The translations under genes were made by a program, and so were the position numbers. A stretch of 63,495 bases of DNA, the filler included, from Lentisphaeria bacterium (GTDB lineage: Bacteria; Verrucomicrobiota; Lentisphaeria; JABSQK01; JAWLHB01), in NCBI GenBank assembly GCA_041690595.1. It is 3 parts of 3 records of this genome, joined end to end, with 100 filler letters (N's around TTAATTAATTAA, not from the genome) between each part and the next. Parts side by side here need not be neighbours in the genome. Positions count along the whole stretch, not along the records: positions 1 to 22,174 come from JAWLHB010000071.1; 2 more parts are not named here. One strand, 5' to 3'. Numbering within the stretch: position 1 is the first letter of the stretch; every line of letters starts with the position of its first letter. The notes beneath the pieces are model-generated. The model searched no databases. It saw only the letters and a list, made by a program, of their open reading frames with translations, and had not been told where the DNA came from. This document shows positions 852 through 22,274 of the stretch, piece by piece.

Positions 852-1880
852 ATGTCTAGCATCGCCTGCGTGGACCTGTTCTGTGGCGCGGGTGGGCTGA
901 CTCACGGTCTCCAGTTGGAAGGAATCCCCGTCACGGCCGGTATCGATTTGGATCCGGCCTGTCGCCATCCCTACGAGTCCAACAACGACACTAGATTCAT
1001 ACAGCGTGATATCAGCAAAGTGCGGCCGAAGGAATTGCTGGCACTGTTCGGGAATGCCGATGTTCGGGTACTTGCGGGCTGTGCGCCCTGCCAGCCGTTC
1101 TCAACATACGCACAGCGCTACCAGCTGAACCCGGAGGACGGTAAATGGGGGCTTCTGTATCAGTTCGGCCGACTGGTGCGAGGGGCGCGTCCGGACATAG
1201 TTACGATGGAGAACGTGCCAACGGTAGCGAAGCATGCGGTCTTCGACGACTTCGTTCGTGCCTTGAAGCGACTCGGATATTGCGTGTGGTACGACGTCGT
1301 AGATAGCTCAGCCTATGGCGTTCCTCAGACCAGAAAGCGGATGGTGCTCTTGGCCTCAAGGATTGGTGACATAAGCATGATTCATCCCACTCATAACAAG
1401 CCGCGGACCGTTCGGCAGGCGATCGGTCGCCTACGGCCCCTCGTTGCGGGAGAAGCATCGCCACGGGACCCATTACATACCGCGGCGACGCTTTCCGATA
1501 CGAACTTGAAACGCATCAGGGCGTCTAAGCCGGGAGGCAGCTGGAAAGATTGGCCGGATCATCTGGTCGCGAAATGCCATCGTGCAGATACTGGGAGAAG
1601 TTACCCAGCCGTCTATGGCCGAATGGAATGGGATAAGCCCGCGCCGACGATGACGACTCAGTGCTATGGCTTTGGCAGTGGTCGATTCGGTCACCCTGAG
1701 CAAGATCGAGCCATATCTCTTCGTGAGGCCGCACTACTTCAGAGCTTCCCCCGAGATTATTCCTTTACCGCCGACAATGGTGCGATCAACTTCAAGGTAC
1801 TTGGGCGCCTCATCGGGAATGCGGTACCGGTCAACCTGGGCCGCGCGATCGGGCGAAGCATCAACCAACACTTAGACTAA
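852..1880 (+). CDS. drmMII: DNA (cytosine-5)-methyltransferase (DrmMII-like / Dcm family)
   Basis: Motif I DLFCGAGG, motif IV GCAPCQPFS, motif VI ENV, motif VIII PQTRKR, motif X GNAVP; followed directly by Vsr. Confidence 0.9.
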   Translation: MSSIACVDLFCGAGGLTHGLQLEGIPVTAGIDLDPACRHPYESNNDTRFIQRDISKVRPKELLALFGNADVRVLAGCAPCQPFSTYAQRYQLNPEDGKWGLLYQFGRLVRGARPDIVTMENVPTVAKHAVFDDFVRALKRLGYCVWYDVVDSSAYGVPQTRKRMVLLASRIGDISMIHPTHNKPRTVRQAIGRLRPLVAGEASPRDPLHTAATLSDTNLKRIRASKPGGSWKDWPDHLVAKCHRADTGRSYPAVYGRMEWDKPAPTMTTQCYGFGSGRFGHPEQDRAISLREAALLQSFPRDYSFTADNGAINFKVLGRLIGNAVPVNLGRAIGRSINQHLD

Positions 1881-2371
1881 TGAGGCAGGAGGTGACGCGC
1901 GTAAAGCCATCATCGCCAGACAGCAGCCGCCGAATGGCAAGGGTGCGCCAATCCGGAACCAAGGCCGAACTCGCTTTGCGACATGAACTGTCCCGTCTGG
2001 CACTGAGATACCGCGTCAACTATCCGGTCCTCGAGAAGCCTCGCAGAGTCGCCGATATCGTCTTCCCTAGACTGCGAATCGCCGTCTTCGTGGATGGTTG
2101 CTTCTGGCATGGCTGTCCGTTACACGCCACCTGGCCAAAGCAGAACGCGGATTTCTGGCGGGAGAAGATTGAAACGAATAGGGCAAGAGATGGCGACACC
2201 GATCGTCGGCTTCGCGCCGAAGGGTGGGAAGTGATCCGGATATGGGAGCACGAATCGCCGTGCGATGCGGCTTCTCGCGTGAAGAGATCAGTATGGGCTC
2301 GAAAGAAAAAATCCGATGCACTCAATGGTAGCGCAAAACGACCAAGCAACAAGCGCGGGGGACATCGGTAA
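1880..2371 (+). CDS. vsr: Very short patch repair endonuclease
   Basis: Motifs SRRMARVRQSGTKAELALR, DIVFPRLRIAVFVDGCFWHGCPLH, FWREKIETNRARD and GWEVIRIWEHE; TAATG overlap with the methyltransferase gene. Confidence 0.95.
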   Translation: MRQEVTRVKPSSPDSSRRMARVRQSGTKAELALRHELSRLALRYRVNYPVLEKPRRVADIVFPRLRIAVFVDGCFWHGCPLHATWPKQNADFWREKIETNRARDGDTDRRLRAEGWEVIRIWEHESPCDAASRVKRSVWARKKKSDALNGSAKRPSNKRGGHR

Positions 2372-5300
2372 TGGCGGATACGGCTCCAGGCGGAGAAGCA
2401 TACCGGGCTTTGCCGGAGTCTGGGCAACTGGTAGAGGTCAGAAGACGCCAGTGGCTAGTCGCCGACGTTCACTCGGCCTCACTTTCTTCGGGCCTGGGAG
2501 TTCTTAGCGTCCGAGAGGGCGCTGCCGATTATCAAGTCGGAACCGGGGCTGCTAGTACCTTCGAAACGCAAAATCTCGTCCGTTTGAGTTCCATCGACGA
2601 AGATGGCCTCGGCGAGGAGTTGGAGGTCATCTGGGAGATCGAACCCGGCGCACAAGTCATCGAGCGTGCGGGCCTGCCTTCCATTACCGGGCAAGACGAC
2701 TCCGACACGCTCGAAGCCTTTCTTGATGCAGTGCGATGGGGTGCCGTCACCAATGCAGACCGAGGGTTTCTGCAGGCGCCGTTCCGCAGCGGCGTCAGCA
2801 TCGAGGACTTTCAGCTCGACCCTCTCGTACGCGCCATCGACATGGCCCGCGTCAACCTCCTCATCGCCGACGACGTCGGCTTGGGCAAGACCATCGAAGC
2901 GGGGCTGGTCATCCAGGAGATGCTACTCCGGCACCGCGCCCGTACCGTCTTGATCATCTGCCCCGCTTCGCTCCAGGAGAAGTGGCGTGTCGAGATGCTG
3001 GAGAAGTTCGGCCTCGACTTCCGCGTGGTCGACACTGCCTACATCAAGCAATTGCGGCGTGAACGCGGCATACACGCCAATCCATGGACCTCGCACCCAC
3101 GACTGATCGCTTCGATGGACTGGGCCAAGAGTGGTGAGGGTTTGCGAAGCATACGGGATGTCCTCCCACCACATGCCGACCATCCACGGCGCTTCGATCT
3201 GCTGGTCGTCGACGAAGCGCACAACGTTGCCCCTGCAGCCGGGGCTCACTACGCCCTCGAGAGTCAGCGGACCCGCTTCATCCGCGCGATCAGCCCGCAC
3301 TTCCAGCATCGCCTTTTCCTGACCGCCACGCCGCACAATGGCTACACCGAGTCTTTCACCTCGCTGCTGGAGTTGCTGGACGACCAGCGCTTCGCCCGAA
3401 ACATTCTCCCCGACGAGAAGCAGTTGAGTCAGGTAATGATCCGTCGCCTGAAGAGCGATCTCGTCGATGCTGACGGCAAGCCCCTGTATGCCCAGCGCAA
3501 ACTCCAGGCGCTGGCTGTTCCTTACACGGATGAGGAACGGGAGATACACCAGAAACTGACCGACTACTGTGCCAGTCGCGAGAAAGACGCGGAGAAGACC
3601 GGCAGCACATTCGGCACCTCGTTCGTCAATCAACTGCTCAAGAAACGATTGTCCTCATCGCCCGCCGCGTTCGCTTCCACGCTCGAGAAGCACGTCGCCT
3701 CGCTGTCGAATGGCGCCAAGCCCAAGGCGAAAGATGCTATGACCGAGCGCATCCTGCGCAAAGCCATCCTGAAAGCCGACGAGGATTACGCCGACGACCA
3801 GGAAGTCGAGAACGCCCAGTCGGAGGCCGTCGAGGAGGCATCACGCCGATCCCAGCCGCTGACTCACGAACAGCAACACATGCTGACCGATCTGAGGCAA
3901 TGGGCGCAGCGCGCCAAGAACCAGACCGACTCCAAGGCCAGAGCCATCCTCGATTGGCTCTCAGCCAATCTGAAACCGGGAGGTCACTGGAACGATCGCC
4001 GCGTGATCTTGTTCACCGAATACCGCACCACCCACCAGTGGATGCACGAGATCCTCGCCAGCCATGGTTTCGGTGGCGAACGACTCGGTCTGCTCCACGG
4101 AGGACTCACTCAGGGTGAGCGTGAGCCCACCAAGGCAGCCTTCCAGGCATCTCCCAAGGATTCCCCCGTCCGCATCCTGCTCGCCACGGATGCGGCCTCC
4201 GAAGGTATCGACCTGCAGAACCACTGCAATTGCCTCATCCACCTGGAGATCCCCTACAACCCCAACGTGATGGAGCAGCGCAACGGGCGTATCGACCGTC
4301 ACGGACAACGCGAGAAAGAGGTGCTGATCTGGCACCCCGTCGACGGCGGTGACAAAAGTCATCCCTCGGTCGGTGGCCATGGTGACGACATCCTGCGTGC
4401 GCTGCGCAAACTGGAGTCGATGCGCGCCGACATGGGCAGCGTCAATCCGGTCATCGCGCCCCAGATGTCCGGGCTCATCGAAGGCTCGCTGAAGGATCTG
4501 GACACCCGCCTCGCGGAGGCCAAGATTGCCAAGGCCAGGCGCTTCGTGCGTGCCGAACGTGAGATGAAGGAGCGCGTCGCAAAGCTCCATGAACGACTCC
4601 TCGCCACCCAGCAGGATTTTCACCTCACGCCCGATCACATCCAGATGTCGGTGAAGACTGGTCTCGCGCTGGCGGGCCGCCCCCCGTTGGAACCCGTCGC
4701 CCTCGCAGATGCACCCCAAGGCAGCGCATTCAGGATGCCACCGCTCTCGGGATCATGGGCGCGCTGTCTGGAGGGCCTGCGTCACCCGCATACCCAACAG
4801 ATACGCCCCATCACCTTCGACCACGCCGTGGCCAAGGGGCGAGACGATGTCGTGTTGGTCCACCTGAATCATCGATTGGTGCAGATGTGCCTGCGGCTGT
4901 TGCGCGCCGAGGTCTGGGCGCAGGACGACGTGAAGAAACTCCATCGCGTCACCGTGAGCACATTGCCGGATGGCAGCATCGAGGGTCCGGCTGTGGTCGT
5001 CATCTCGCGGCTGGTCATCACCGGTGGCAACCACCATCGCCTTCACGAGGAACTGACCGTCTCGGGCGGCCATCTGCGCGATCAGTCGTTCCGGCGCGAA
5101 GAGGGCGTCACGCGTGTCCAGCAGTGGCTGGACGAGGCGCAGCCCATCACGGCGAACGATTCGCTGTTCGATGCCCTTCGGGTGCGCTTCGATCGCACTC
5201 GCCCCGCCATCCTGCAGGCAGTCGACGTCCGCTCGAAAGATCGACTCAAGTTTCTGGCCAACACGCTGCAGACCCGCAAGCAACGAGAGATGGACGACAT

Positions 5301-5574
5301 CGGCGCCGTGCTGGACGAGCTCGAGAAGGCGATTCAGAGCGAACTGAAAAAGGACCAGCAGCCCGAGCAGATGTCGCTGTTCACCGAGGACGAGCGCACC
5401 CAACTCAGGCGCGATACAGCCGCGCTGGAGGCGCGCCTCGCGCGCATTCCGGCCGAGCGCATCCAGGAGGTGCAGGCCATCGAGACCCGCTATGCCAAGC
5501 TCGATGATCGCACCTTCCCGGTTGCAGTCGTCTTCCTGGTTCCTGAGTCAGCCATGAAAGGGGGTGCGGCATGA
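2371..5574 (+). CDS. drmD: DISARM SNF2-like helicase DrmD
   Basis: LIADDVGLGKT (Walker A), DEAH, LTATP, ATDAASEGIDLQ, EQRNGRIDRHGQ; positioned immediately before the adenine MTase. Confidence 0.92.
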   Translation: MADTAPGGEAYRALPESGQLVEVRRRQWLVADVHSASLSSGLGVLSVREGAADYQVGTGAASTFETQNLVRLSSIDEDGLGEELEVIWEIEPGAQVIERAGLPSITGQDDSDTLEAFLDAVRWGAVTNADRGFLQAPFRSGVSIEDFQLDPLVRAIDMARVNLLIADDVGLGKTIEAGLVIQEMLLRHRARTVLIICPASLQEKWRVEMLEKFGLDFRVVDTAYIKQLRRERGIHANPWTSHPRLIASMDWAKSGEGLRSIRDVLPPHADHPRRFDLLVVDEAHNVAPAAGAHYALESQRTRFIRAISPHFQHRLFLTATPHNGYTESFTSLLELLDDQRFARNILPDEKQLSQVMIRRLKSDLVDADGKPLYAQRKLQALAVPYTDEEREIHQKLTDYCASREKDAEKTGSTFGTSFVNQLLKKRLSSSPAAFASTLEKHVASLSNGAKPKAKDAMTERILRKAILKADEDYADDQEVENAQSEAVEEASRRSQPLTHEQQHMLTDLRQWAQRAKNQTDSKARAILDWLSANLKPGGHWNDRRVILFTEYRTTHQWMHEILASHGFGGERLGLLHGGLTQGEREPTKAAFQASPKDSPVRILLATDAASEGIDLQNHCNCLIHLEIPYNPNVMEQRNGRIDRHGQREKEVLIWHPVDGGDKSHPSVGGHGDDILRALRKLESMRADMGSVNPVIAPQMSGLIEGSLKDLDTRLAEAKIAKARRFVRAEREMKERVAKLHERLLATQQDFHLTPDHIQMSVKTGLALAGRPPLEPVALADAPQGSAFRMPPLSGSWARCLEGLRHPHTQQIRPITFDHAVAKGRDDVVLVHLNHRLVQMCLRLLRAEVWAQDDVKKLHRVTVSTLPDGSIEGPAVVVISRLVITGGNHHRLHEELTVSGGHLRDQSFRREEGVTRVQQWLDEAQPITANDSLFDALRVRFDRTRPAILQAVDVRSKDRLKFLANTLQTRKQREMDDIGAVLDELEKAIQSELKKDQQPEQMSLFTEDERTQLRRDTAALEARLARIPAERIQEVQAIETRYAKLDDRTFPVAVVFLVPESAMKGGAA

Positions 5575-8500
5575 GCAATCACGACCTGCACCACGACTGG
5601 CTCGGGCTGATCGAGATCTCCGGTCCGTTCCTCGCCGTTCCCGTTCTCAAGGAGGCCTTTCCCCAAGGCCTGGAAGAGCTCGACGGAATCAAGCGCAAAC
5701 GGCTGCGACAGGCATATGAGGAATGGCGTGAGGCGCTAGAGACGGATGATCCACAATTTCCCGAGCTGCACACCGCCTGGATCGATGAGGTATTGGCGCG
5801 TGGCTTGGAAATAGATGAGGATGGCAAAGCCGACGTCCTGAAGCGCGCCGACTGGTGTGCGGCCAACCTGCGTGCCGCCCTGCCAGAGCATGGCGTCATG
5901 CTGGCTCCGGATCTCGCTGTGATCGATGAGCAGCGTGGCACTAAGCCGCTGATGCACATCCACACCTACGGCCAGGATGTCGACCTCGATGCCACCCTGA
6001 AGCAGGATGGATGGGCCGCCACCCCGGCCGATCGCATGGTTCAGTTGTGCCGCGCCACAGGCTGCCGCCTCGGGCTAGTGACCAATGGCGAGCGCTGGAT
6101 GCTGGTCGATGCCCCAGTGGGCGCCGTCACCACCTTCGCCAGCTGGTACGCCCGCATCTGGAGCCAGGAGCCCATCACCCTCCAGGCATTCGTGCATCTG
6201 CTGGGCATTCGTCGCTTCTTCGTCGATGAAGCCGAGCAACTGCCGGCACTGTTCGACCGCTCGCTGAAGTATCAGGATGAAGTCACCGACGCCCTCGGTG
6301 AGCAGGTGCGGCGCGCCGTGGAAGTGCTGATCCAGGCGCTCGACAAGGCCGACCAGGACCGCGATCGCGAGTTGCTGCGCGACGTGAAGGAGCCCGTGCT
6401 CTACGAGGCCGCGCTGACGGTGATGATGCGTCTGGTGTTCCTGCTCGCGGCCGAAGAGCGCGGCTTGCTCTTGCTCGGCGACGAGCGCTACGAGGCCAAC
6501 TACGCGCTCTCGACCCTGCGCATGCAGCTGCGCAAAGAATCCGAGGAGATCCTCGAACGCCGCTGGGATGCCTGGTCGCGCCTGCTGGCGATCTTCCGCG
6601 CCGTATTCGGCGGCATCGAACACGAAAACCTGCGACTGCCCGCACTGGGTGGCTCGCTGTTCGACCCGGATCGGTTCCCCTTCCTGGAGGGTCGCGCAAA
6701 GGGCTCCGACTGGCGTACCGACACGGCCAAACCGCTGCCCATCGACAACCGCACCGTGCTGCTGTTGCTGGAGGCCATCCAGCAGTTCCAGGGCAGGACG
6801 CTGTCCTACCGCGCGCTGGACGTCGAACAGATCGGCTACGTCTACGAAGGTCTGCTGGAGCGTACCGTCAAACGCACCGCCGAGGTCACGCTGGAACTGG
6901 GTGGCACCAAGAATGCCAAGGCCCCCTGGGTCAGGTTGGCCGAGCTGGAATCCGCCCGTCTCGACGGCGCTGAACGTCTGGCCGAATTGCTTCAGGAACG
7001 CTCCGGCAGTTCCGCCAGCCGTGTGCGCAACGATCTGGCCAAGCCGGTCGACGATACCCTTGCCGACCGTCTGCTGGCCGCCTGCCATGGGGACACCAGC
7101 CTTCGTAACCGCATCAAGCCCTTTGCCCATCTGGTACGCACCGATCCATGGGGCTATCCGCTGGTCTACCCTGCCGGGGCCTTCATCGTCACCACCGGCT
7201 CCGACCGTCGCGAGACGGGTACTCACTACACGCCGAAATGGCTCACCGAGGCCATCGTCACCGAGACCCTGACGCCGATCGCCTACGGGGGACCGGCAGA
7301 AGGCACCCCGCGTGAGCAGTGGGTGCTGAAATCCCCCGCCGAACTGCTGGACCTGAAGATATGCGACCCGGCCATGGGCTCAGGCGCCTTCCTGGTGCAG
7401 GCCTGCCGCTGGCTGGCTGATCGCTTGGTCGAGGCTTGGTCACTGGCCGAAGGCAGTGGAAAGACGGTGAGCGTGGATGGCGAAGTGCTGGATGCGCCCG
7501 ACACCAAAGAACCGCTGCCTCGCGACACCGAGGCCCGCACCGTGATCGCCCGCTGCCTCATCGCCGAACGCTGCCTCTACGGTGTGGACCTGAACCCCCT
7601 GGCGGTCGAACTCGCCAAGCTCTCCATCTGGCTGGTGACGCTGGCCAAGGGGCGGCCCTTCGGCTTCCTCGACCATAACCTACGCTGTGGCGACAGCCTG
7701 CTCGGCATCCATCGTCTCGATCAGCTCACCGAGCTCTCAATGGTGCCGACCGGGAAAGGCCAGCAACGCTTGTTCGGGCAGAACATCCAGCAGGCGGTTC
7801 GCGAAGCGATTGAGCTGCGGCAGCGACTGCGCGCGATGCCGATCCGGGACATCCGTGATGTCGAAGCCATGGCAAGCCTGGATGCCGATGCGCGTCGCAG
7901 GCTCGAAGTGCCGGAATGCATCGCCGATGCGTTCATCGGAGAGGTGCTTGCATCGGGCGGCGGCACGGCACTGGAGAACGCGCTGGCGTCGCTGGCCATC
8001 CAAGCCGGACAGGCGATCGACGGCGACCGCGACGCGCTTGCTTTGATGCATCGGCGATCGGTCGTCGCGCTCTCCGCCGAGCTACCCGCAGAGAAGCCCC
8101 CACGTCTACCACTTCATTGGCCGTTGAATTTTCCCGAGGTGTTTGCACGGGACGCTCAGGGTTTCGATGCCGTCGTCGGCAATCCTCCCTTCAGCGGTGG
8201 TCGTTTGATCGGACGCCGTTTTGGTTCGGCGTATCAAGAGTACTTGAAGCTTGTTCGCAATGATGTCGTGGGGTCGCCAGATCTCTGCGTCTATTTCTAT
8301 TTGCGAGCCTTTGTCTTGCTCGCGCCGAAAGGGTGTTTTGGCCTTCTAGCAACAAAGTCGATTACGGAGACTGGGTCCCGCGTAGTTTGTCTGGATCAGA
8401 TTATCGGAGCAGGAGGAATCGTCTATCGGGGGTGCTCAAGGATGGCTTGGCCGGGTAACGCAGCCGTGATCGTCTCAATTGCATGGGTTGCCCGCAATGG

Positions 8501-9899
8501 CTGGCAAGGCCAGAAAGTCTTGGACAATCGAACCGTGCCAGCAATAAATGGTGCACTGGAAGAAGACTTTCAGATCAAGCGTCCAATGAAGCTCAGAGCT
8601 TTGAAGGGCCTGTTCTCCCAAGGCCAGGACTTGATGGGGCGCGGTGGCTTTGAGCTTACGGCCGAAGAGCGCAGGTCGATGCTTAACAATGACCCCAGAT
8701 GTGCGGAGGTGATCATTCCTCTGTTCAACGGGCAAGACCTAAACACCATGCCGAAGCTGGAACCGTATCGCTGGGTAATTTATTTCAGAGATTGGCCAGA
8801 GGAACGGGCGCGCAAATACGAAGCGGCTTTTCGACGTGTTGAAGAGCTTGTTAAACCCTACCGAGAATCTCTCACCGGGCAAATTCACCAGGATTGTTTC
8901 TGGAAATTTTGGGACCTGAGACCCAAGCTCATGGATGAGCTGTCAAGACGCGATCGCATACTTGCGTCTTCTAGAAGGTCAAAGCACTTGTGCTTCCGAT
9001 TTGTTTCGACAAGCTTCGTAATGAATGAAGCAACAAAGTTGTACTTCTTCGACGATTTTTTTGATTTCGCTTGTCTGCAATCGTCCCTGCATACGGTTTG
9101 GGCCTACTGGACGTGTGGAACCATGGGCATGACGACCATGAAGTACTCCACATCTGAGGCTCTCGAAACCTGGCCCATGCCGATAGTTACTGAGCGGGAT
9201 GAGCTTGACCATCTCGGTGGTCTTTATCACAGACTCCGGGATGAGTTTATGGCCGACGACTCAATTGGAATGACTCAAGTTTACAACCGCTTCCATGATC
9301 CACTGGATAGTGATTCCCGTGTTGAAGCAATACGCGAACTTCATCAGGAAATTGATCTGGCAATCACTCGCGCTTATCGCTGGGACGACCTCGACCTTGG
9401 TCACGGTTTCCACGAAGTGCCTTATCTGCCGGAGAACGACCGCGTTCGCTTCACCATTTCGGAGTCCGCGCGTATCGAAGTGCTGCGGCGGCTGTCGGAG
9501 TTGAACCGACAGCGTTACGAGGAAGAAGTCGCCCGAGGCTTGCACGGAGCCAAGACCACAGGATCGGCGACCCGTGCCCCACGCAACAAGCGAACCGGGC
9601 ACGCAGCTACATCACAGCCCTCATTGGACTTTGATGCTAGCCCAGCAAACGAGGGCAACAACCTTACGGCTGCCGAACCGCGCGGCCAGTATAACGCAGC
9701 CCCAGTTCACGCCGTCTTCGAGCACCTGAAAGCCCATTCCGGTTGGCGCGCCAAGTCCGACATCCTCGCCGCGACCGGGATCACGGACGGGCAGTGGAAC
9801 GCCGCGATCGCCGACCTGATCGCGAGTGGCAGCGTCGAGCGCCACGGTGAGAAGCGCGGAGCGCGTTATAGAGTAGTGACCGAGGGGGCGAAAGAATGA
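5571..9899 (+). CDS. drmMI: DISARM N6-adenine methyltransferase DrmMI (Eco57I/type IIG-like) with C-terminal winged-helix-like tail
   Basis: GTHYTP, ICDPAMGSGAFL (SAM binding), LYGVDLNPLAVELAKLSIWL, VVGNPPF (catalytic), followed by a target-recognition region. Confidence 0.9.
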   Translation: MSNHDLHHDWLGLIEISGPFLAVPVLKEAFPQGLEELDGIKRKRLRQAYEEWREALETDDPQFPELHTAWIDEVLARGLEIDEDGKADVLKRADWCAANLRAALPEHGVMLAPDLAVIDEQRGTKPLMHIHTYGQDVDLDATLKQDGWAATPADRMVQLCRATGCRLGLVTNGERWMLVDAPVGAVTTFASWYARIWSQEPITLQAFVHLLGIRRFFVDEAEQLPALFDRSLKYQDEVTDALGEQVRRAVEVLIQALDKADQDRDRELLRDVKEPVLYEAALTVMMRLVFLLAAEERGLLLLGDERYEANYALSTLRMQLRKESEEILERRWDAWSRLLAIFRAVFGGIEHENLRLPALGGSLFDPDRFPFLEGRAKGSDWRTDTAKPLPIDNRTVLLLLEAIQQFQGRTLSYRALDVEQIGYVYEGLLERTVKRTAEVTLELGGTKNAKAPWVRLAELESARLDGAERLAELLQERSGSSASRVRNDLAKPVDDTLADRLLAACHGDTSLRNRIKPFAHLVRTDPWGYPLVYPAGAFIVTTGSDRRETGTHYTPKWLTEAIVTETLTPIAYGGPAEGTPREQWVLKSPAELLDLKICDPAMGSGAFLVQACRWLADRLVEAWSLAEGSGKTVSVDGEVLDAPDTKEPLPRDTEARTVIARCLIAERCLYGVDLNPLAVELAKLSIWLVTLAKGRPFGFLDHNLRCGDSLLGIHRLDQLTELSMVPTGKGQQRLFGQNIQQAVREAIELRQRLRAMPIRDIRDVEAMASLDADARRRLEVPECIADAFIGEVLASGGGTALENALASLAIQAGQAIDGDRDALALMHRRSVVALSAELPAEKPPRLPLHWPLNFPEVFARDAQGFDAVVGNPPFSGGRLIGRRFGSAYQEYLKLVRNDVVGSPDLCVYFYLRAFVLLAPKGCFGLLATKSITETGSRVVCLDQIIGAGGIVYRGCSRMAWPGNAAVIVSIAWVARNGWQGQKVLDNRTVPAINGALEEDFQIKRPMKLRALKGLFSQGQDLMGRGGFELTAEERRSMLNNDPRCAEVIIPLFNGQDLNTMPKLEPYRWVIYFRDWPEERARKYEAAFRRVEELVKPYRESLTGQIHQDCFWKFWDLRPKLMDELSRRDRILASSRRSKHLCFRFVSTSFVMNEATKLYFFDDFFDFACLQSSLHTVWAYWTCGTMGMTTMKYSTSEALETWPMPIVTERDELDHLGGLYHRLRDEFMADDSIGMTQVYNRFHDPLDSDSRVEAIRELHQEIDLAITRAYRWDDLDLGHGFHEVPYLPENDRVRFTISESARIEVLRRLSELNRQRYEEEVARGLHGAKTTGSATRAPRNKRTGHAATSQPSLDFDASPANEGNNLTAAEPRGQYNAAPVHAVFEHLKAHSGWRAKSDILAATGITDGQWNAAIADLIASGSVERHGEKRGARYRVVTEGAKE

Positions 9900-11776
9900 A
9901 AGAGTATCAATTGAATGTCGATCCGCGCATCTTGGAACTTCTCGGCCCGAATCTCTACACGAACATTTACTACGTGCTGGCGGAGTTGATTGCCAATGCG
10001 TATGACGCAGACGCAAAGAACGTCTACATCATTGCCAACAAGGATGACATCCGGGTTGAAGACGATGGCCACGGCATGTCCTACGAGAAGGGCGATATCA
10101 CCAACTATCTAAATGTCGCTGGCGTTTCACGAATCAAAGAAGCCGACTCGTTCTCCAAGTCTGGTGCGCGCCGAAAAATGGGACGCAAGGGAGTCGGGAA
10201 ACTGGCTGCGCTGTCGGTGTCTGAAAATGTCGACATCTTGACCGTGGCAGATGGCGAGAAGTCAGGATTCGTCCTTTCTCGCCATCCAGATGAAGGCAGC
10301 AAGCTCAAAGCAATTGCCGACGCCGACATCACTTTCGATCATGTCGTAGACCATGGCTCCGCCATCGTGATGCGCAACCCGCAGTACAGACTCCACAAGA
10401 CGCTTGCTGCCGTAAAGCGCAATCTTCTGAAGATTTTTCCCTTGATCAATGCTGATTTTCGCATCCACGTCATCAGGGGGCAGGAATCCGAGATGATCGA
10501 CGATTTCGACAGAAACGTGATGGCGGAGCTCGGCACGCTGATCGCGCTTGGTGATGAGTATTCGCCATTGATCGACCTCGTACCAGATATCTATCCACAA
10601 AGGCGAATGGACCTGGTCACCAGCAGGGACGAGAAAGCCATTCCCCTGGTCATGAAGGACAACGAAGGGGTCGAGCACGAATACACCCTTCAGATCGCCG
10701 GTTGGATCGGGACATACAAAACGACGCGAGGTCGCAAGGCCGAGATGTCGGATTTTCCTGATAACTTCATCTCGCTGTTCGCGAACAAAAAGATGGGGGA
10801 GTTCAATATCCTACCTGTCGTTGGCCAGAACAAGTTGAATGAGGTTTATGTCGTTGGGCAACTACACGTCGACTTGTTCGAGCTGACCGAACTGCCGGAT
10901 ATGGCATTGAGCAACCGCCAGGGATACAAATCTGACGATCCGCGATATATCGCAGTTCTGGACTATGTGAGGAAGGAGCTGCTGGCGGAGATTCTGAGAA
11001 AGCGAGAAATTTTCACAGACATAGGAAAGGCGAAGAAGAAGCAGAAAAAGCAAGACGAGCAAAAAGACAATGAGGAACGGCTCCGGCGCAATGTCGATGA
11101 CTTCCGCAGGAAGGCAAGCGAAGAAGCCGCCAACAACCTGCTGGACCTTGGCTCTGGTTTGTCTCGCGAAGCGATCGAAGGTGCCATCACAAAATCGATA
11201 AACGACAACAGCCCAGACCTTGGGCTGAAGTCGCTCATCGATTCCCAGAAGAAAAAGATACTCATCAGTCAGACCTATCCTGACAAACCGTTCGCCGACA
11301 TCATTTATCAGATGCTCCTGCACAACAACGTGCCGGCCGAGGACATCCTGTACACGAATTGTGATGATGAAATCTGCCGCGTACCCGAAGGCAGAGGTGT
11401 CTACGACTATTTGAGAGATTTTTTCGTAGAGAGCTATTCGACCCAGAAAATATTTGTCCTTTTCGTGACGAGCGAGAACACCAAGGTGTCATGGGGTGCG
11501 ATCACGGAAGTGGGCGCGTCCTGGATCACCCAGGTCGACCACAAGATCTTCAATGTTCATCCGTTCAGACCCGAGCATCCTCTGAACGATGAGGTGCAGT
11601 GGCAAAGCACCAACCGGGAGGAACCAACCAGAGGCGAGCTTTGGATGATCCCACTGAACGCGGATGTCTTCTGCCAGAAGATCGAAGCGGTCTGTGATGC
11701 GCTGGGTTATGAGAAGAAGACCAGAGCTGACAACAAAGCGTACCTCGGGACGCTGATTCCTATTCGAAGCGCCTGA
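9896..11776 (+). CDS. GHKL/MORC-type ATPase with coiled coil and C-terminal TIR-like domain
   Basis: N-box LAELIANAYDAD, G1 EDDGHGM, G2 GRKGVGKLA. A Lys/Glu-rich helical linker follows. Residues about 454-560 (KILISQ...DKPFADIIYQML...DILYT...IFVLFVTSEN...SWGAITEVGASW) follow the TIR beta-alpha pattern. Confidence 0.8.
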   Translation: MKEYQLNVDPRILELLGPNLYTNIYYVLAELIANAYDADAKNVYIIANKDDIRVEDDGHGMSYEKGDITNYLNVAGVSRIKEADSFSKSGARRKMGRKGVGKLAALSVSENVDILTVADGEKSGFVLSRHPDEGSKLKAIADADITFDHVVDHGSAIVMRNPQYRLHKTLAAVKRNLLKIFPLINADFRIHVIRGQESEMIDDFDRNVMAELGTLIALGDEYSPLIDLVPDIYPQRRMDLVTSRDEKAIPLVMKDNEGVEHEYTLQIAGWIGTYKTTRGRKAEMSDFPDNFISLFANKKMGEFNILPVVGQNKLNEVYVVGQLHVDLFELTELPDMALSNRQGYKSDDPRYIAVLDYVRKELLAEILRKREIFTDIGKAKKKQKKQDEQKDNEERLRRNVDDFRRKASEEAANNLLDLGSGLSREAIEGAITKSINDNSPDLGLKSLIDSQKKKILISQTYPDKPFADIIYQMLLHNNVPAEDILYTNCDDEICRVPEGRGVYDYLRDFFVESYSTQKIFVLFVTSENTKVSWGAITEVGASWITQVDHKIFNVHPFRPEHPLNDEVQWQSTNREEPTRGELWMIPLNADVFCQKIEAVCDALGYEKKTRADNKAYLGTLIPIRSA

Positions 11777-11787
11777 GGGAAGCTGGC

Positions 11788-14700
11788 ATGGCACACAACA
11801 CGAACCCCAACGCATGGATCGCCATTGATCATGGTCTCGGCACCGACTACAGGCTTGCGCCCTACGCCCTGGTTCTTAGGGGCGAACGCTCCCTTTATCA
11901 GGCCATCGAGGAGGACGACTGGGTTCTGGTCCTGAACCCCGCTGGCGACATCACCCGTGTCGGGCGTGTGCTGCGGGTTCGTTCCGATCTCAAGACCACC
12001 ACGCTCTATTTCGACCGACTGCTGTCGGTCACCGACCCCGTCTCGATCGGCCTCACTGCACTCACGCCACCGTCTTCGGGAAGTATTGGTCGGGTCCAGT
12101 GGACCGATTTCGTCGAAGCCCTGCCCAAGGCATTACACAAGACCATCGCCGACGTGCCGACGGTCGGGTCTGACGCCCGTTCACCCCAGCATCAGCAGGA
12201 ACTCGCCTATATCCGCGAATTGCTGCAACTGGCCGTGATGGACGATCTGCTCGGTCCGGCTGGCGGTCCTCATGAGCGTATCGTCGACATGGGTGTGCGG
12301 GATCGCTATCTGGTGGGCAAGCTTGCTCCGCGTGAGGCAGCACAGGGCGGCATCGAAGGGCTCGAAGGGCCACTGGCAAACGACGATGCCGAAGAGCCTA
12401 GCGATCCCCAAGCACCAGGCCAGCACGAACCAGGCGCGGAGTTCGGCACGGCGACGGGGCGTGTCGAGCCCGAATCCGATGCGGCAGACGAGATCGACGC
12501 GGCCAGCAATCAGTCGCTGGTGCCGAGTAGCCTCGGCATGACCTTTTGCGTGGATGGCGACGCCGAGCGAATCGAGATCGAAGTGCGCTGGGGTCGCTAT
12601 GAGCGCAGCGACGAGCACGAGATCTCCCGCACCCGCAAGAACAAGGAGACCGGCGCCGAGGAGCAGACCAAGGCGAAGGTATGGCAGCGCATCCCCTGCG
12701 GCGGCAAGCTGGTGCTGCCGCTCACCGAAGGCGTGATCCCCCATCAAGCGCCGGATAAGAGCTATCCCGAAGTGCGGGTGCAAGGCTCCGTGCGTGCCAA
12801 GAACGCGAACGGTGACCGCCTGGTGACATTGTTCCTGGTCAATGCACAGGAAGAACCCGAGACCAACCGGGATTCCGCCTGGGTGTTCCAGCCGGAGCTG
12901 ATCGTTCGATCGGAAGCAGAAGCCCCCAAGCGCGCCATCTTCCGCCGCCGGCCCGTACTGGATGCGGACGGCATGGACCCGGAGCGTGAATCGCTGGAGA
13001 TGATCTACCGCAACCGGGTGGAGTTCGCGGTGGGTCATGGCGTCGCCGTCCATGCCGACACGGCGGATGACGTGACGCTGGCCACCGAGGTGCGCACCAC
13101 CGTCATGCCGCAGTACGAGGTACAGGTCACCGAGACACCGGGTCTCGATCCTGCCGACCGACCGGCGATGAAAGAAATGGTGAGCAGTGGTCTGCTCGAC
13201 ATGCAGCGCCTCGCCAACCTGGACATCGATCCACTGGTCGATGCCCTGAATCTGCTGACCAAGGATTACGCCGCGTGGATCGGCGAGCAGCGTGCTCGGG
13301 TCAGTGTCGACGTGCTCGGCTACGACGCGCAGGCCCGACAGGCGATGGATCGATGCCAGGAGATCCATACGCGTCTGCAGCAGGGCATCGATACTCTCAA
13401 GAGCGACGAGAGAGCGCTGGCAGCCTTCCGTTTCGCCAACCAGGCGATGGCCACGCAGCGCGTGCGTAGCCAATACTCCCTCGAAATCCGGCGCGGTAAG
13501 GACGTCACCGTCGACCAGTGCGACGTGCTGAAGAACCGCAGCTGGCGCCCGTTCCAGTTGGCTTTCCTGCTGCTGTCGATCCCATCGCTGGCCGACCCGA
13601 CGCACCCGGATCGCATGCAGCCCGTCGAAGCCTATGCCGATCTCTTGTGGTTCCCCACCGGTGGCGGCAAGACCGAGGCCTACCTAGGTGTGGCCGCCTT
13701 CACCATGGCCATTCGGCGCATGCAGGGCAACCTGGGCGGCTACGACGGCTCGCGCGGTCTCGCCGTGATCATGCGTTACACCCTTCGCCTTCTGACGTTG
13801 CAGCAGTTCCAGCGTGCCACGGCATTGATCTGTGCGATGGAGGTGCTGCGTCGCGAGGCGCTGGCCAAGGGTGACGAATCGCTCGGCACCGAACCCTTCA
13901 CCATCGGACTGTGGGTCGGCAACAAGGTGACGCCGGGCACAACCGAGGACAGCCATCGGGCCATCGAGGACATCCGCAACCCCGGCAAGTACAACGCCGG
14001 GGCGGCGTCTCCCGCGCAACTGACCAGTTGCCCCTGGTGTGGCTCCGAAGTCGCCCCTGGGCGCGACGTAGAGGTCGACAAGGGGCGTGGGCGCACCTTC
14101 GTCTACTGCGGCGACAAGAAAGGCCGCTGTGACTTCTCTAAGGGCAAGTCCAGCAAGCTCCCTCACCCGGGCATCCCGGTGCTCGTCGTGGACGAGGAGA
14201 TCTACCACCGTCCCCCGACGATGATGATCGCCACCGTGGACAAGTTCGCCATGATGGCGTGGCGGGGCCAGGTACGCACGCTGTTCGGCCGGGTTGGCCA
14301 GGAATGCGAGCGGCACGGCCTGCTATGGCAGGGCGCGGACTGCAATGGCAATCACCAAGCCGGCAGGGGACTCGGTGCGACCAAGGTCAAGAATATGAGC
14401 CCGATCCGACCGCCGGATCTGATCATCCAGGACGAGTTCCACCTGATCAGTGGGCCGCTCGGCACCATGGTTGGCCTGTACGAGACGGCCGTGGACGAAC
14501 TGTGCGGCTGGAAGTTTGGCGAACGTATGGTCAAGCCGAAGATCATCGCGTCGACCGCCACGGTGCGTAAGGCCCGCGAGCAGGTGAACAACGTCTTCAT
14601 GCGCCAAGTGTCGGTGTTCCCGCCGCATGGGCTGGACGTGGAGGACAACTACTTCTCTGTCCAACGACCCATCGAGGACAAGCCGGGACGGCGCTACCTC

Positions 14701-15813
14701 GGGGTCTGCTCTCCCGGAAGTTCACGACCTGCGATGCTGATTCGCGTCTACACGGCATTCCTGACCGCTGCTCAGGCGTTGTTCGACCGCTTCGGCGAGC
14801 CCGCAGACCCCTACATGACCATGGTCGGCTACTTCAACTCGCTGCGAGAGCTGGGGGGTATGAAGCGCTTGGCCGAGGACGACGTGCAGACGCGTTCCTA
14901 TCGGGTGCAGATGAGCATGGTCGAGCGCCCCGCGCTGGCGCAACGCAGCGTCAGCAACATCCGCGAGCTGACATCCCGCGTCTCCAGCCAGGACATCCCG
15001 AAGTACCTCGACAACCTCGAGGTGAAGTTCAAGTCCGAGTTCGATGACTCAGCCGGCAAGTACGTGACCAAGTGGCAAGAGGGCGACACCCGGGCGATCG
15101 ACGTGGTGCTGGCCACTAACATGCTGTCGGTGGGGGTGGACGTCAACCGGCTGGGACTGATGGCGGTCAATGGCCAGCCCAAGGGCACGGCGGAATACAT
15201 CCAGGCCACCAGCCGTGTGGGGCGTTCCTTTCCAGGCTTGGTCTGCACCGTGCTCACCTGGGCACGGCCACGCGACCTCTCGCACTACGAGACCTTCGAG
15301 CACTACCACGCCACCTTCTACAAGCACGTCGAAGCGCAGTCGGTGACACCCTTCTCGCCGCGCGCGATGGACCGAGGCCTGACCGGCTCGCTGCTGAGCC
15401 TGATGCGCCTGGAGAACGATGTGTTCAGCCCCAACGAGGGGGCAGGCAAGTTGGACAAGTCAGATCAGAGCGAGATCACCGATGCCATCGATGTGCTCGT
15501 CAAACGGGCATGGAATGTCAGCGAACTGTCCAGCACCAAGAGCCTGGCCGAACAGGAACTGAAGGAGCGCGCAGACGAGTGGGCCAAGGAGGTGGGCAAA
15601 GGCGGCCGCATCCTGGCCTATGAGAAGCGCGGCCCCGAGAAGGACAAGACCGTTGCATTGATCAGGTCACCGGGCATCCAGGCCTGGGACAACTGGACCG
15701 TGCCCATGTCGATGCGTGAGGTGGAGCCCGGTGTGCGCTTGATCATGAATACCAGCCGCATCTCGGACGACCACAATTGGAAGCCTCGTCCTGCGACGAA
15801 GGATGAGGATTGA
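11788..15813 (+). CDS. drmA: DISARM SF2 helicase DrmA
   Basis: FPTGGGKT, IIQDEFHL, STAT, ATNMLSVGVDV, YIQATSRVGR, CPWC zinc motif; acidic loop at about aa 180-245. Confidence 0.93.
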   Translation: MAHNTNPNAWIAIDHGLGTDYRLAPYALVLRGERSLYQAIEEDDWVLVLNPAGDITRVGRVLRVRSDLKTTTLYFDRLLSVTDPVSIGLTALTPPSSGSIGRVQWTDFVEALPKALHKTIADVPTVGSDARSPQHQQELAYIRELLQLAVMDDLLGPAGGPHERIVDMGVRDRYLVGKLAPREAAQGGIEGLEGPLANDDAEEPSDPQAPGQHEPGAEFGTATGRVEPESDAADEIDAASNQSLVPSSLGMTFCVDGDAERIEIEVRWGRYERSDEHEISRTRKNKETGAEEQTKAKVWQRIPCGGKLVLPLTEGVIPHQAPDKSYPEVRVQGSVRAKNANGDRLVTLFLVNAQEEPETNRDSAWVFQPELIVRSEAEAPKRAIFRRRPVLDADGMDPERESLEMIYRNRVEFAVGHGVAVHADTADDVTLATEVRTTVMPQYEVQVTETPGLDPADRPAMKEMVSSGLLDMQRLANLDIDPLVDALNLLTKDYAAWIGEQRARVSVDVLGYDAQARQAMDRCQEIHTRLQQGIDTLKSDERALAAFRFANQAMATQRVRSQYSLEIRRGKDVTVDQCDVLKNRSWRPFQLAFLLLSIPSLADPTHPDRMQPVEAYADLLWFPTGGGKTEAYLGVAAFTMAIRRMQGNLGGYDGSRGLAVIMRYTLRLLTLQQFQRATALICAMEVLRREALAKGDESLGTEPFTIGLWVGNKVTPGTTEDSHRAIEDIRNPGKYNAGAASPAQLTSCPWCGSEVAPGRDVEVDKGRGRTFVYCGDKKGRCDFSKGKSSKLPHPGIPVLVVDEEIYHRPPTMMIATVDKFAMMAWRGQVRTLFGRVGQECERHGLLWQGADCNGNHQAGRGLGATKVKNMSPIRPPDLIIQDEFHLISGPLGTMVGLYETAVDELCGWKFGERMVKPKIIASTATVRKAREQVNNVFMRQVSVFPPHGLDVEDNYFSVQRPIEDKPGRRYLGVCSPGSSRPAMLIRVYTAFLTAAQALFDRFGEPADPYMTMVGYFNSLRELGGMKRLAEDDVQTRSYRVQMSMVERPALAQRSVSNIRELTSRVSSQDIPKYLDNLEVKFKSEFDDSAGKYVTKWQEGDTRAIDVVLATNMLSVGVDVNRLGLMAVNGQPKGTAEYIQATSRVGRSFPGLVCTVLTWARPRDLSHYETFEHYHATFYKHVEAQSVTPFSPRAMDRGLTGSLLSLMRLENDVFSPNEGAGKLDKSDQSEITDAIDVLVKRAWNVSELSSTKSLAEQELKERADEWAKEVGKGGRILAYEKRGPEKDKTVALIRSPGIQAWDNWTVPMSMREVEPGVRLIMNTSRISDDHNWKPRPATKDED

Positions 15814-17675
15814 ACATGACGACGACCAATAAGACTCCAGTCGGAGAAGTTAGACCCAGCCAGTTGCTCTGGACCTACGGGCCAGGGGCATTGATCGACC
15901 TGCCGAGCCTGTCCGTCGTGACGCTCGGCATCGACCGATGGGAGAAGGACCGCTGCCAACCAATCCAGGAAGCCAGACTGCTGGCCGCCGTTCGGAAGGT
16001 GCTTGGAGCACAGGTCGAGAACCTGCGGATGCCGCCGTTCCAGAAAAGCGAGCTCGTCGATGTCTGGTCGGCCGAGGCCAACATCGGCGTTCCCGTTCGG
16101 CCGTTCCCGCGTTGGATGCGCTGCGTGAAGTGCGGCCTGCTGTCCCCGATCGAGTCAGGACTTTTCAGAATCAAGGAAAATCGATATCGGCCAGAGATGA
16201 CACGTTTCGTTCATGAGTCGTGTCGCGGTTGGGATGGAAAAGGAAGGGCATGGAATGCAGATGTAGTACCGGCTAGATTGCTTCTGGCATGTCGTGACGG
16301 GCATCTGGATGATTTTCCATGGCACTATTTCGCTCACCGGGGACCGAGCTGCTGCAAAGGCACACTTCGGTTCATCGAGAGTGGCGCTTCTCTCCAGACG
16401 GAAAACCTGTGGGTAAAGTGTGACGAATGCGGGTCTGCGATGAACCTCGCGCAAGCATTCGGCAGGGCAGGTAAGGTAAATCTCCCAGCCTGTCGGGGCC
16501 GCCACCCCCACCTCGACCACTTCGATAACGAATGTGGCGAGGAGGCGCGGGCGGTTCTATTGGGCGCCACGAATAGCTGGTTCCCGATTACGCTCTCCGC
16601 CCTCGCGATTCCCCAGACCAAGGACCCACTCAGTCAGCTGATCCAGGATGGTTGGGAGTTCTTCGAGGAACTGGAATCCGAAGCCGAAGTGTCGGTGACG
16701 GTGAAGACCTTGAAGAAGACCGGGGCGCTGCCAGGGATCGACAAATATCCAGCGGCGGCGATCTGGTCGGCCATCAAGGCGCACCGTACTGGTGTCGGAC
16801 AGGAAGTCGTAGGTGAGGCGGACATCAAGGGCCCCGAGTGGGACGTGCTGACAGAGGCGAACCCACCCACGGACTACCCGCACTTCATGAGCAAGAAGGT
16901 CGGTACGCCACCGGCTTTTGCGAAGCACATCAGCAGGGTGCTGCTTCTGGAGCGACTGCGTGAGGTCAATGCCTTACTCGGTTTCACTCGCGTGGAGGCG
17001 CCCGAAGAAACGGGTGACCCGAACGAACGGCCCCAGATGGCCAACCTCTCACGAGGCAAACCGGACTGGGTTCCTGCAAACCAGGTGCATGGTGAGGGTA
17101 TCTTCATCCAGTTCGACGAGCAGGCGCTCGTCGCTTGGGAAGCACTACCTGCCGTCGCGCAGGTCGACAAGATGCACCGGGGAGGCCACAGGGGATGGCG
17201 CAATTCACGTCATCTCGATCCTGACGAGGGCTACCCCGGCATTCGCTACGCCATGCTCCACACACTCTCGCACCTGCTGATTCGTGAGCTGGCGTTGGAG
17301 TGCGGCTACAACGCAGCGAGTATCCGCGAGCGAATCTATGCCGACACCTCGGGCGAGAGTCCGCAGGCCGGTATCCTCATCTACACGGCAGCGGCGGACT
17401 CCGATGGAACGCTGGGCGGTCTCGTCGATCTCGGCAAGCCGGAGAATCTGGGTCGCCTATTGGAGCAAGCCTTGAATCGCTCGAAGATCTGCTCCTCTGA
17501 CCCGCTTTGCTCCGAGCACGATCCCGAGAAAGATCGCTCACTTCATGCTGCGGCGTGCCACGCTTGTAGCCTGGTGGCTGAGACCTCCTGCGAGCGCGGC
17601 AATCGCTACCTGGATCGGTCATTGCTGGTTCCGACCCTGGAACGCATCGACGCGGCTTTCTTCAAGGGCTTGTGA
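15810..17675 (+). CDS. drmB: DISARM DUF1998 protein DrmB
   Basis: VRPSQLLWTYGPGALIDLP N-terminus; LHTLSHLLI; C-terminal Cys cluster CSSDPLC...AACHAC...ETSCE. The start may instead be the ATG two codons downstream. Confidence 0.93.
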   Translation: MNMTTTNKTPVGEVRPSQLLWTYGPGALIDLPSLSVVTLGIDRWEKDRCQPIQEARLLAAVRKVLGAQVENLRMPPFQKSELVDVWSAEANIGVPVRPFPRWMRCVKCGLLSPIESGLFRIKENRYRPEMTRFVHESCRGWDGKGRAWNADVVPARLLLACRDGHLDDFPWHYFAHRGPSCCKGTLRFIESGASLQTENLWVKCDECGSAMNLAQAFGRAGKVNLPACRGRHPHLDHFDNECGEEARAVLLGATNSWFPITLSALAIPQTKDPLSQLIQDGWEFFEELESEAEVSVTVKTLKKTGALPGIDKYPAAAIWSAIKAHRTGVGQEVVGEADIKGPEWDVLTEANPPTDYPHFMSKKVGTPPAFAKHISRVLLLERLREVNALLGFTRVEAPEETGDPNERPQMANLSRGKPDWVPANQVHGEGIFIQFDEQALVAWEALPAVAQVDKMHRGGHRGWRNSRHLDPDEGYPGIRYAMLHTLSHLLIRELALECGYNAASIRERIYADTSGESPQAGILIYTAAADSDGTLGGLVDLGKPENLGRLLEQALNRSKICSSDPLCSEHDPEKDRSLHAAACHACSLVAETSCERGNRYLDRSLLVPTLERIDAAFFKGL

Positions 17676-17676
17676 C

Positions 17677-18438
17677 GTGGAGAAGCTCTTGGACGCTGTC
17701 GCAGCCGTGGTCTGTCTGGTCTCTCCAGAGAAGGTCCAGGCCATAGCCAGCCGGATTCGTCGGACTGATGCCAGCAAAGCAGCCGGTGCGCTGTCGGGCG
17801 CAGTAAGCACCCCCGTTGCTGCTGAGGTTGTGGATCAGCTCATCGACGCTTGGCGAAGCACCTCTGTAAACGCCGAGGAAGTGGCATCGATGCTGCTCGC
17901 CGCCGGCCACGTCTTCACCAAGGCCACCAATCAACAATCCACCGAACTCGTGTGGACGGGGCCGACGACACCCTTCGTCTCGGCACGACGAACCGAGCAG
18001 GCGCTACTCCAGGTCATCAACGCCGCTGAGCAGACCCTGTTCATCACCAGCTTCGTGGCCTATGACGTCTCGACCATCGTCAAGGCGCTGAATGCCGCAA
18101 ATGATCGCGGAGTGGTCATCTCCATGCTGCTCGAATTGTCTCAGGACCACGGCGGCAGCATCACCTTCGATGCTATCGGCAAGATGAGGACGCTGGTCCC
18201 CGCGGCAAGACTTTATGCTTGGCGAGACAAGGCCGACCCTTTCTCCGACGGACGCGTCCACGCCAAAGTCGCTGTAGCCGACGACAGGATGTGTTTCATC
18301 ACCAGCGCGAATTTGACCGGGCACGCCATGGAAAAAAACATGGAGGCTGGGGTACTGGTCTCAGGAGGAAACGTCCCCCAATTGCTCGCGCAGCACCTGC
18401 AGGCGTTGGTCGAGACCAGGGTGGTTGCTGAACTCTGA
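17677..18438 (+). CDS. drmC: DISARM phospholipase D-family nuclease DrmC
   Basis: ELVWTGP, HKD motif HAKVAVAD, ITSANLT, NMEAG; GTG start 1 nt after the drmB stop. Confidence 0.92.
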   Translation: MEKLLDAVAAVVCLVSPEKVQAIASRIRRTDASKAAGALSGAVSTPVAAEVVDQLIDAWRSTSVNAEEVASMLLAAGHVFTKATNQQSTELVWTGPTTPFVSARRTEQALLQVINAAEQTLFITSFVAYDVSTIVKALNAANDRGVVISMLLELSQDHGGSITFDAIGKMRTLVPAARLYAWRDKADPFSDGRVHAKVAVADDRMCFITSANLTGHAMEKNMEAGVLVSGGNVPQLLAQHLQALVETRVVAEL

Positions 18439-18639
18439 AAGGCTATTCTCGATTCTCCTCCGGACGAGGTCGCACTTTCTATCTATGTTTGTTTCTCCTT
18501 AGAGCCTCTTGTCGGCAATGAGCTGGCGCTTCCGCTCACCGACTCCGTCGCAGTCTGTGACGTGTGGCGGCGCCCTTGTCGGCCGACGACGGCATCATCC
18601 AGGTTTGATCTTCCGGTCTACCGCGGCACCTCGTCCGCC

Positions 18640-22174: not shown

Positions 22175-22274
22175 NNNNNNNNNNNNNNNNNNNNNNNNNN
22201 NNNNNNNNNNNNNNNNNNTTAATTAATTAANNNNNNNNNNNNNNNNNNNNNNNNNNNNNNNNNNNNNNNNNNNN
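22175..22274. other. Artificial contig linker
   Basis: 44 N + TTAATTAATTAA (stops in all six frames) + 44 N. Confidence 0.99.

Follow-up and report, generated by a model that had tools for sequence, protein, structure and literature searches.

A 63,495-nucleotide stretch of DNA from a Lentisphaeria bacterium (assembly GCA_041690595.1; hereafter the window) carries a DISARM operon in which drmD, drmMI, drmA, drmB and drmC are all present and arranged in class 1 order, as identified by PADLOC and NCBIfam. Between drmMI and drmA lies an additional gene, whose 626-residue product joins a GHKL-S5 ATPase module to a C-terminal TIR domain through a long helix (GHKL-TIR; Table 1). It overlaps drmMI by the ATGA at 9896–9899, drmA begins after an 11-nt gap from its stop codon, and its GC content (0.517) is lower than that of drmD (0.622), drmMI (0.606), drmA (0.635), drmB (0.601) and drmC (0.605). 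The original prediction, made from the sequence alone, had described this open reading frame (ORF), its spacing, its foreign-looking composition relative to the five drm genes (0.60–0.635) and its DISARM setting, and all of these were confirmed. Its account of the locus was right about the drm genes and left unmentioned a C5 cytosine methylase gene and a vsr gene at 852–2371. A methylase of this family turned out to be the constant partner of the GHKL-TIR gene.

The N-terminal part of the protein matched HATPase_c_3 in Pfam (residues 26–130, E = 5e-18), and the ATP-binding positions E30, N34, D56, G58, G60, G99 and G101, together with R341, were invariant both in 33 diverse relatives and in 51 locus-derived sequences. 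The GHKL assignment made at the outset was therefore upheld, with its N-box residues E29/N33 corrected to E30 and N34. The full-length model resembled the ATPase modules of Hsp90, MORC3 and MORC4. However, the MORC half of the proposed "GHKL/MORC" label did not survive: by inspection, the S5 strand aligned with its HgiDII-type equivalent has neither the Gly nor the Arg of the MORC signature GhXhhpXXRhl, so "paraMORC" is a better label. The NCBIfam family for BbrUII/HgiDII restriction enzymes (NF050001) matched residues 4–412 only, with 212 bits, below its cut-off of 550. Alignment by hhalign with the HgiDII-type protein of another DISARM locus, L116, gave a value of 100% at 28% identity, and homology stopped near residue 377. 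Judged from sequence, the GHKL-TIR gene is a relative of HgiDII with a TIR domain in place of the DNA-cutting end; the C-terminus of HgiDII was left unassigned in the accessible part of PMC2441816.

The C-terminal part was assigned to the TIR fold by several searches, all of which pointed to SpbK of Bacillus subtilis. The PADLOC spbK profile matched residues 446–558 (E = 1.3e-15), and SpbK was the best sequence match in PDB (E = 5e-4, approximately 20% identity in the TIR domain). Because a Foldseek search with the full-length model gave ATPase folds alone among the matches listed, residues 445–626 were modeled separately (predicted local distance difference test score 81.6). SpbK was the top structural match of this model by Foldseek (E = 1e-8) and by VIA-align (Z = 16.0, root-mean-square deviation 2.9 over 152 residues); the next VIA-align match had Z = 12.4, and other TIR domains followed. 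A Pfam search of the 626-residue protein showed no TIR match, and TIR_2 was weakly present in distant relatives. ESM Atlas placed the domain in TIR_2-type clusters and the whole protein in ATP-binding clusters without names, and it contained no named system for either. These structural matches agree with the TIR domain proposed initially and rule out a PD-(D/E)xK nuclease or receiver fold for the C-terminus.

All motifs quoted in the original prediction were found, with KILIS at 454–458 and the presumed active-site Glu at 538. The conservation of this Glu among homologs was borne out in 77 of 77 TIR segments (79 matches minus two partial ones), and E538, G540 and W543 were all invariant in the 33 diverse and 51 locus-derived sequences. 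In the PDB pairwise alignment, with a 24-residue numbering offset applied by hand, these positions correspond to E192, G194 and W197 of SpbK, and E192 is presumably the catalytic residue. As described in the accessible part of PMC12847820, SpbK mutants G194R and W197A lose filaments, NADase activity and defense, and E192A is listed among the mutants. The ratio of nonsynonymous to synonymous substitution rates in the TIR domain was 0.008–0.067 in 7 of 9 pairs (the other two were saturated), which indicates purifying selection and rules out a pseudogene or neutral passenger. We conclude that the gene is real and conserved, and that it encodes a predicted TIR effector which is probably active.

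Table 1. Features of the window discussed in the text (feature, position, strand, basis or remark).
GHKL-S5-helix-TIR gene	9896..11776	+	ORF, 626 residues
GHKL + S5 ATPase module, residues 1–370	9896..11005	+	homologous to N-terminal part of BbrUII/HgiDII enzymes; E30 codon 9983–9985
Long charged helix and second helix, residues 349–442, ATPase-TIR linker	10940..11221	+	model helices 349–417 and 424–442
SpbK-like TIR domain, residues 452–626	11249..11773	+	PADLOC, PDB and structure searches; E538 codon 11507–11509
C5 cytosine methyltransferase, DrmMII-like, putative partner	852..1880	+	Pfam DNA_methylase E 1.7e-54; PADLOC DrmMII 308 bits
vsr very-short-patch repair endonuclease, optional methylase companion	1880..2371	+	Pfam Vsr E 1.2e-14
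drmD, SNF2 helicase	2371..5574	+	NCBIfam DISARM_DrmD 1417 bits, cut-off 610
drmMI, adenine methylase	5571..9899	+	PADLOC DrmMI 1888 bits; MmeI_TRD at residues 1017–1204
drmA, helicase	11788..15813	+	NCBIfam DISARM_DrmAS 1507 bits, cut-off 950
drmB (DUF1998/MZB)	15810..17675	+	PADLOC DrmB E 1e-80
drmC, phospholipase-D nuclease	17545..18438	+	PADLOC DrmC at residues 46–296, E 4.9e-119

A genome scan for the GHKL-TIR gene was used to examine its neighborhoods, and the best 80 of 592 confirmed matches were kept as loci. Both drmMI and drmA were present in 22 of these 80 loci, always with the gene between them, and the other 58 lacked the pair. In 53 of the 58 non-DISARM loci, a homolog of the window methylase (at least 44% identical) was located no more than 600 nt from the gene; in the remaining ones, a methylase lay within 2.7 kb (two loci), the contig ended (two) or the methylase was 32% identical (one). 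Of the 58 stand-alone loci, 19 had a vsr gene at a distance of 2 kb or less, and no other family occurred as a third gene in more than 7 of the 80, with 5 kb on both sides available in only 31 of the 58. Among the 22 DISARM loci with the TIR gene, 16 contained the methylase, five ended too soon and in one (L017) it was not found. In a quick tree of 74 full-length proteins, which omits 6 split or short loci, DISARM copies were nested among stand-alone copies with 6 label changes, 2 of them forced by strong branches. DISARM copies also clustered beyond what shuffled labels gave (mean near 18.5 changes). The hosts were spread over many phyla and included archaea. We also observed that the gene was split over two ORFs in L022, L058, L079, L136 and L208, by frameshift, stop or assembly error.

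The target-recognition region of the methylase showed a single consensus over TIR and nuclease loci. Targets are given in the accessible parts of published work as GTCGAC for M.HgiDII (PMC5867850) and MTCGAK for Serratia DrmMII (10.1101/2021.12.28.474362), and the window methylase probably recognizes a TCGA-containing site. HVO_C0040, a described M.HgiDII homolog, was only 31% identical to the window methylase, with target-region motifs in common. In Haloferax volcanii this gene, in print a type II methylase, is followed downstream by genes for a helicase, a DUF1998 protein and a phospholipase D (L285:9494–20462), a DISARM-like order. As far as the accessible text goes, M.BbrUII forms 5-methylcytosine according to PMC5867850 but is an adenine methylase according to another review. 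A predicted complex of the full protein with the methylase scored 0.00 with controls that did not fold, and thus weighs neither for nor against binding.

A set of DISARM loci independent of the GHKL-TIR gene was anchored on DrmMI. It combined 10 loci found in two samples of 401 genomes each with the 80 best of 516 metagenome matches; the drmMI-to-drmA span was complete in 60 of these 90. This slot contained the TIR gene in 9 loci and a HgiDII-type gene in 11 (one partial), and was empty in 8. KAP NTPase, helicase plus DUF2290, PRTase plus reverse transcriptase, AspBHI, GmrSD plus HEPN, OLD-type and other genes were also found there; the slot genes formed 30 clusters, 27 representatives of which were profile-scanned. 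The methylase was present in 57 of 66 evaluable loci of this set. Direct exchange was visible in L104 and L116, which were 87–94% identical to the window at the DNA level over drmD, the 5' part of drmMI, and from drmA onward, with the alignment interrupted at window positions 8192–11807. Both contain a HgiDII-type gene that overlaps drmMI by 4 nt and stops 12 nt before drmA, and the slot protein of L116 scored 865 bits on NF050001. Such a swap in otherwise closely similar operons indicates that the nuclease and TIR versions replace each other. The two versions shared the slot in none of the 60 loci, an observation of little weight since chance expectation is just ~1.7 by hand arithmetic. A role as DISARM core gene is ruled out, because the gene was present in only 9 of 60 complete DISARM loci and 58 of 80 copies (best 80 of 592) were outside DISARM. 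A family-level DISARM survey found no genome beyond the window's own.

Other variable features were seen in these operons. A second DrmD-like SNF2 helicase with a ~570-residue gene that had no Pfam or NCBIfam match occupied the slot in 13 loci, often directly after the TIR gene (L163:16011–19151; L018:15020–16720), and another GHKL protein (471 residues) with a Methyltransf_35 gene (331 residues) did so in 7 (L191:14086–15498; L123:16138–17130). Gene content also varies at a second slot, the drmD-drmMI junction, which holds a Schlafen group 3 helicase in 13 loci, a Mrr-type nuclease in 10 and a 237-residue gene in 4 (for example, L134:5065–7083, L127:5146–5781 and L191:9282–9992). Within drmMI itself, a segment of lower GC at approximately 8190–9370, covering the target-recognition region, varied among operons otherwise 87–93% identical, which is consistent with specificity swapping.

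The same ATPase carries further C-terminal ends on viral contigs. Among 79 viral-contig loci, a nuclease-type end was present in 60, a TIR domain in 4 and other or broken ends in 15, and a C5 methylase of the window's family adjoined 55 of the 60 nuclease-type and 3 of the 4 TIR loci. Hypoth_Ymh HEPN and a second kinase-type domain were also found on related ATPases, and the HEPN-type ends suggest that suicide-type effectors recur on this chassis. In a quick tree of 57 ATPase modules, hand-chosen and biased because its TIR members had been retrieved by similarity to the query, the TIR label required 4 changes, which suggests that ends were swapped repeatedly. Viral cassettes in L263 (5001–6647), L264 and L266 were composed of the methylase, a GHKL protein and a vsr-like gene. 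The GHKL proteins had a C-terminus without confident Pfam match but with an RxxxxH stretch, which we take to be suggestive of HEPN. In the P2-like phage PhiR44_1 (L202:3498–6546), the window's methylase family and a gene annotated ParaMORC3 were located between replication and portal genes; no paper on this pair was found in the literature.

With regard to the rest of the window, drmC probably starts ~45 codons downstream of 17545 and is followed by a partial ORF similar to acid phosphatase PhoC (18509–19051). The next part, after filler at 22175–22274, contains an ORF (22364–24097) with an MmeI target-recognition domain in Pfam. Window positions 1–21773 were 99.995% identical, flanking genes included, to positions 106–21878 of L001, another assembled genome, reflecting either very recent transfer or binning overlap.

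The explanation we favor, and to which we give about an even chance, is a two-gene module similar to restriction-modification (R-M) with a NAD+-depleting effector instead of a nuclease, used here as a swappable DISARM accessory. It builds on what was observed above for the domains of the protein, its conservation, its partner genes and the exchange at the slot. The GHKL-S5-TIR protein would be the effector half and the C5 methylase the other half, with vsr as an option; the protein would thus be the TIR counterpart of HgiDII/BbrUII enzymes, in the slot of a class 1 DISARM that already carries the methylase. Self DNA would be marked by the methylase, probably at a TCGA-containing site, and the ATPase clamp would engage unmarked DNA and gather several TIR domains. 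Once assembled, these may hydrolyze NAD+ via Glu538 in an SpbK-like manner, and the infected cell would be arrested. The ATPase-helix part is all that the nuclease and TIR forms have in common, and one methylase family accompanies the two of them, so a methylation-linked function probably resides in that part. More broadly, and more tentatively, cytosine-methylation-based self/non-self discrimination may be wired via an ATP-driven clamp to NAD+ destruction, as one version of a chassis that would read the mark and take interchangeable outputs (DNase, HEPN RNase, TIR NADase, kinase), exchanged by DISARM operons at a fixed slot.

Several observations weigh against this explanation. Distances of the gene and of the methylase were weakly correlated (Mantel rho 0.22, n = 63), a value reached in 1 of 999 permutations. 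The methylase was also paired with DUF262 and MAE_28990 HEPN genes on plasmids (L204:566–3373, L205:1643–4529), and 36 of 41 evaluable DISARM loci without the TIR gene contained it; its presence in DISARM is therefore no proof that it serves this gene. Serratia DrmMII in Escherichia coli methylated only 67% of sites, according to the accessible text of 10.1101/2021.12.28.474362, a level at which a strict suicide switch responding to unmethylated sites would be risky. If the specificity of HgiDII sits in its nuclease end, site reading would be absent from the TIR form. In addition, D158 in the BB-loop of SpbK, which is required for the active head-to-tail interface, aligns with G499 in one pairwise alignment, and Asp occurs at this position in 4 of 51 relatives; a GHKL dimer by itself may be insufficient for active TIR assembly.

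Part of this evidence would be accommodated if the protein were a guard similar to PrrC/RloC, whose ATPase monitors the methylase, phage-caused DNA damage or an anti-restriction protein rather than methylation, and then releases the TIR NADase. A guard would cause no autoimmunity under partial methylation and fits the tight methylase linkage equally well. Such a role was also proposed for paraMORC-Ymh HEPN fusions by Anantharaman et al. 2013 (PMC3710099, part accessible), and Ymh-type fusions on related ATPases adjoin C5 methylases in our viral loci. However, no nuclease that would need a backup recurs in the stand-alone cassettes. In addition, the curated family of the nuclease sister, which has the same kind of methylase, is one of restriction enzymes, and this argues for DNA-mark reading on this chassis. 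We consider a guard unlikely, although it is the strongest competitor. The original prediction of a nested backup, which in this setting would be triggered when DrmA/DrmB are active or DISARM is inhibited, is improbable. The translational coupling of the gene, its placement in the drmMI-drmA slot in 22 of the 80 loci and the clustering of DISARM copies in the tree are in its favor, but the drmMI-drmA pair is absent from most of the loci kept from the scan, where the constant partner is the C5 methylase. Moreover, the gene is missing from 51 of 60 complete DISARM loci, and the slot is empty or filled by many unrelated defense genes.

Two other possibilities concern the TIR domain itself, and we find each of them quite improbable. 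It may make a signal, such as an isomer of cyclic ADP-ribose (cADPR), that is sensed, as in Thoeris, by a receptor whose gene lies elsewhere; its catalytic Glu is conserved, and SpbK yields N1-cADPR as well as ADP-ribose, as stated in the accessible part of PMC12847820. However, no receptor gene recurred in the 80 loci (best 80 of 592, with the flanks given above), and a distant receptor would hinder the spread over many phyla and archaea; the lack of any third gene in more than 7 loci favors a direct effector over a signal maker. Alternatively, the TIR domain may act on nucleic acid or merely serve dimerization or allostery in a module that restricts DNA directly. This possibility was raised by Iyer et al. 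2008 (PMC2292703, part accessible), who suggested a nuclease or an allosteric site, and the TIR domain does replace a nuclease at an equivalent position in protein and operon. On the other hand, the residues that it keeps invariant coincide with those in the NADase helix of SpbK, and the His of the proposed Hx[ST]xD motif is Gln here and in 35 of 51 relatives.

If the favored R-M-like module is real, a TIR NADase would be under the control of DNA methylation, which would link R-M with abortive infection within a unit of two genes. Nearly identical operons with either a nuclease or a TIR domain on one ATPase amount to a domain-swap experiment carried out by nature, which can show the site-reading part of HgiDII-type enzymes as well as the role of the ATPase. 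The junction between drmMI and drmA in class 1 DISARM also stands out as a hotspot that merits further mining.

A literature search, mostly outside subscription journals and large defense-screen supplements, turned up no experimental work on a GHKL-TIR protein. In the parts accessible, Wang et al. 2024 (PMC11350192) do not mention HATPase, GHKL or methyltransferase; PMC10853773, PMC5829577 and 10.1101/2020.08.26.268516 have nothing on a GHKL-TIR fusion; and the Tiamat preprint (10.64898/2026.09.30.754977) regards the function of prokaryotic paraMORCs as no more than a proposal and does not mention TIR. The architecture, which the original prediction did not know as a named system, has been described: the combination of GHKL-S5 with a C-terminal TIR in R-M neighborhoods was predicted computationally in 2008 as paraMORC4 (Iyer, Abhiman and Aravind, PMC2292703, part accessible), and thus is not new. 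Like the window protein, paraMORC4 has intact ATP-binding motifs, a patchy distribution, and cytosine methylases, Vsr and SF2 helicases as neighbors. Unlike it, the window protein reads QTYPD (459–463) at the Hx[ST]xD motif; in the 33 diverse relatives His was present in 23 and Asp in 31, with the full motif in several distant members. By sequence, the window protein is paraMORC4-like rather than a proven member. The accessible text of that study contains no mention of NADase activity, HgiDII or DISARM.

Among characterized proteins, SpbK (from ICEBs1; PDB 9PHB) has the closest TIR domain by both sequence profile and structure, with equivalents of E192, G194 and W197, but its small N-terminal domain binds the phage portal protein YonE where an ATPase clamp is present here, and the D158 equivalent is missing. 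The class 1 DISARM of Serratia sp. SCBI with drmMII has the same drmD-drmMI-drmA-drmB-drmC genes plus a C5 methylase, whereas no GHKL-TIR gene is described in the accessible part of that report (10.1101/2021.12.28.474362). In VcSduA, a paraMORC3-like Shedu protein (PMC12137116, part accessible), a GHKL ATPase likewise controls a C-terminal defense effector, and this GHKL-nuclease fusion defends and needs the ATPase Glu; the effector, however, is a DNase that restricts directly, and the cell survives. The paraMORC-Ymh HEPN fusions (PMC3710099, part accessible) also combine a GHKL ATPase with a C-terminal effector, which is a predicted RNase rather than a TIR domain. BbrUII/HgiDII enzymes share a homologous ATPase module (~28–30% identity over ~360 residues), an adjoining C5 methylase of one family and the drmMI-drmA slot, but end in a Shedu-like PD-(D/E)xK domain with weak SduA_C matches instead of TIR. 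In comparison with these systems, three points appear to be new: the interpretation of the TIR domain as an SpbK-like NADase, the almost constant association of the gene with C5 methylases of one family, and its direct exchange for a HgiDII nuclease within DISARM.

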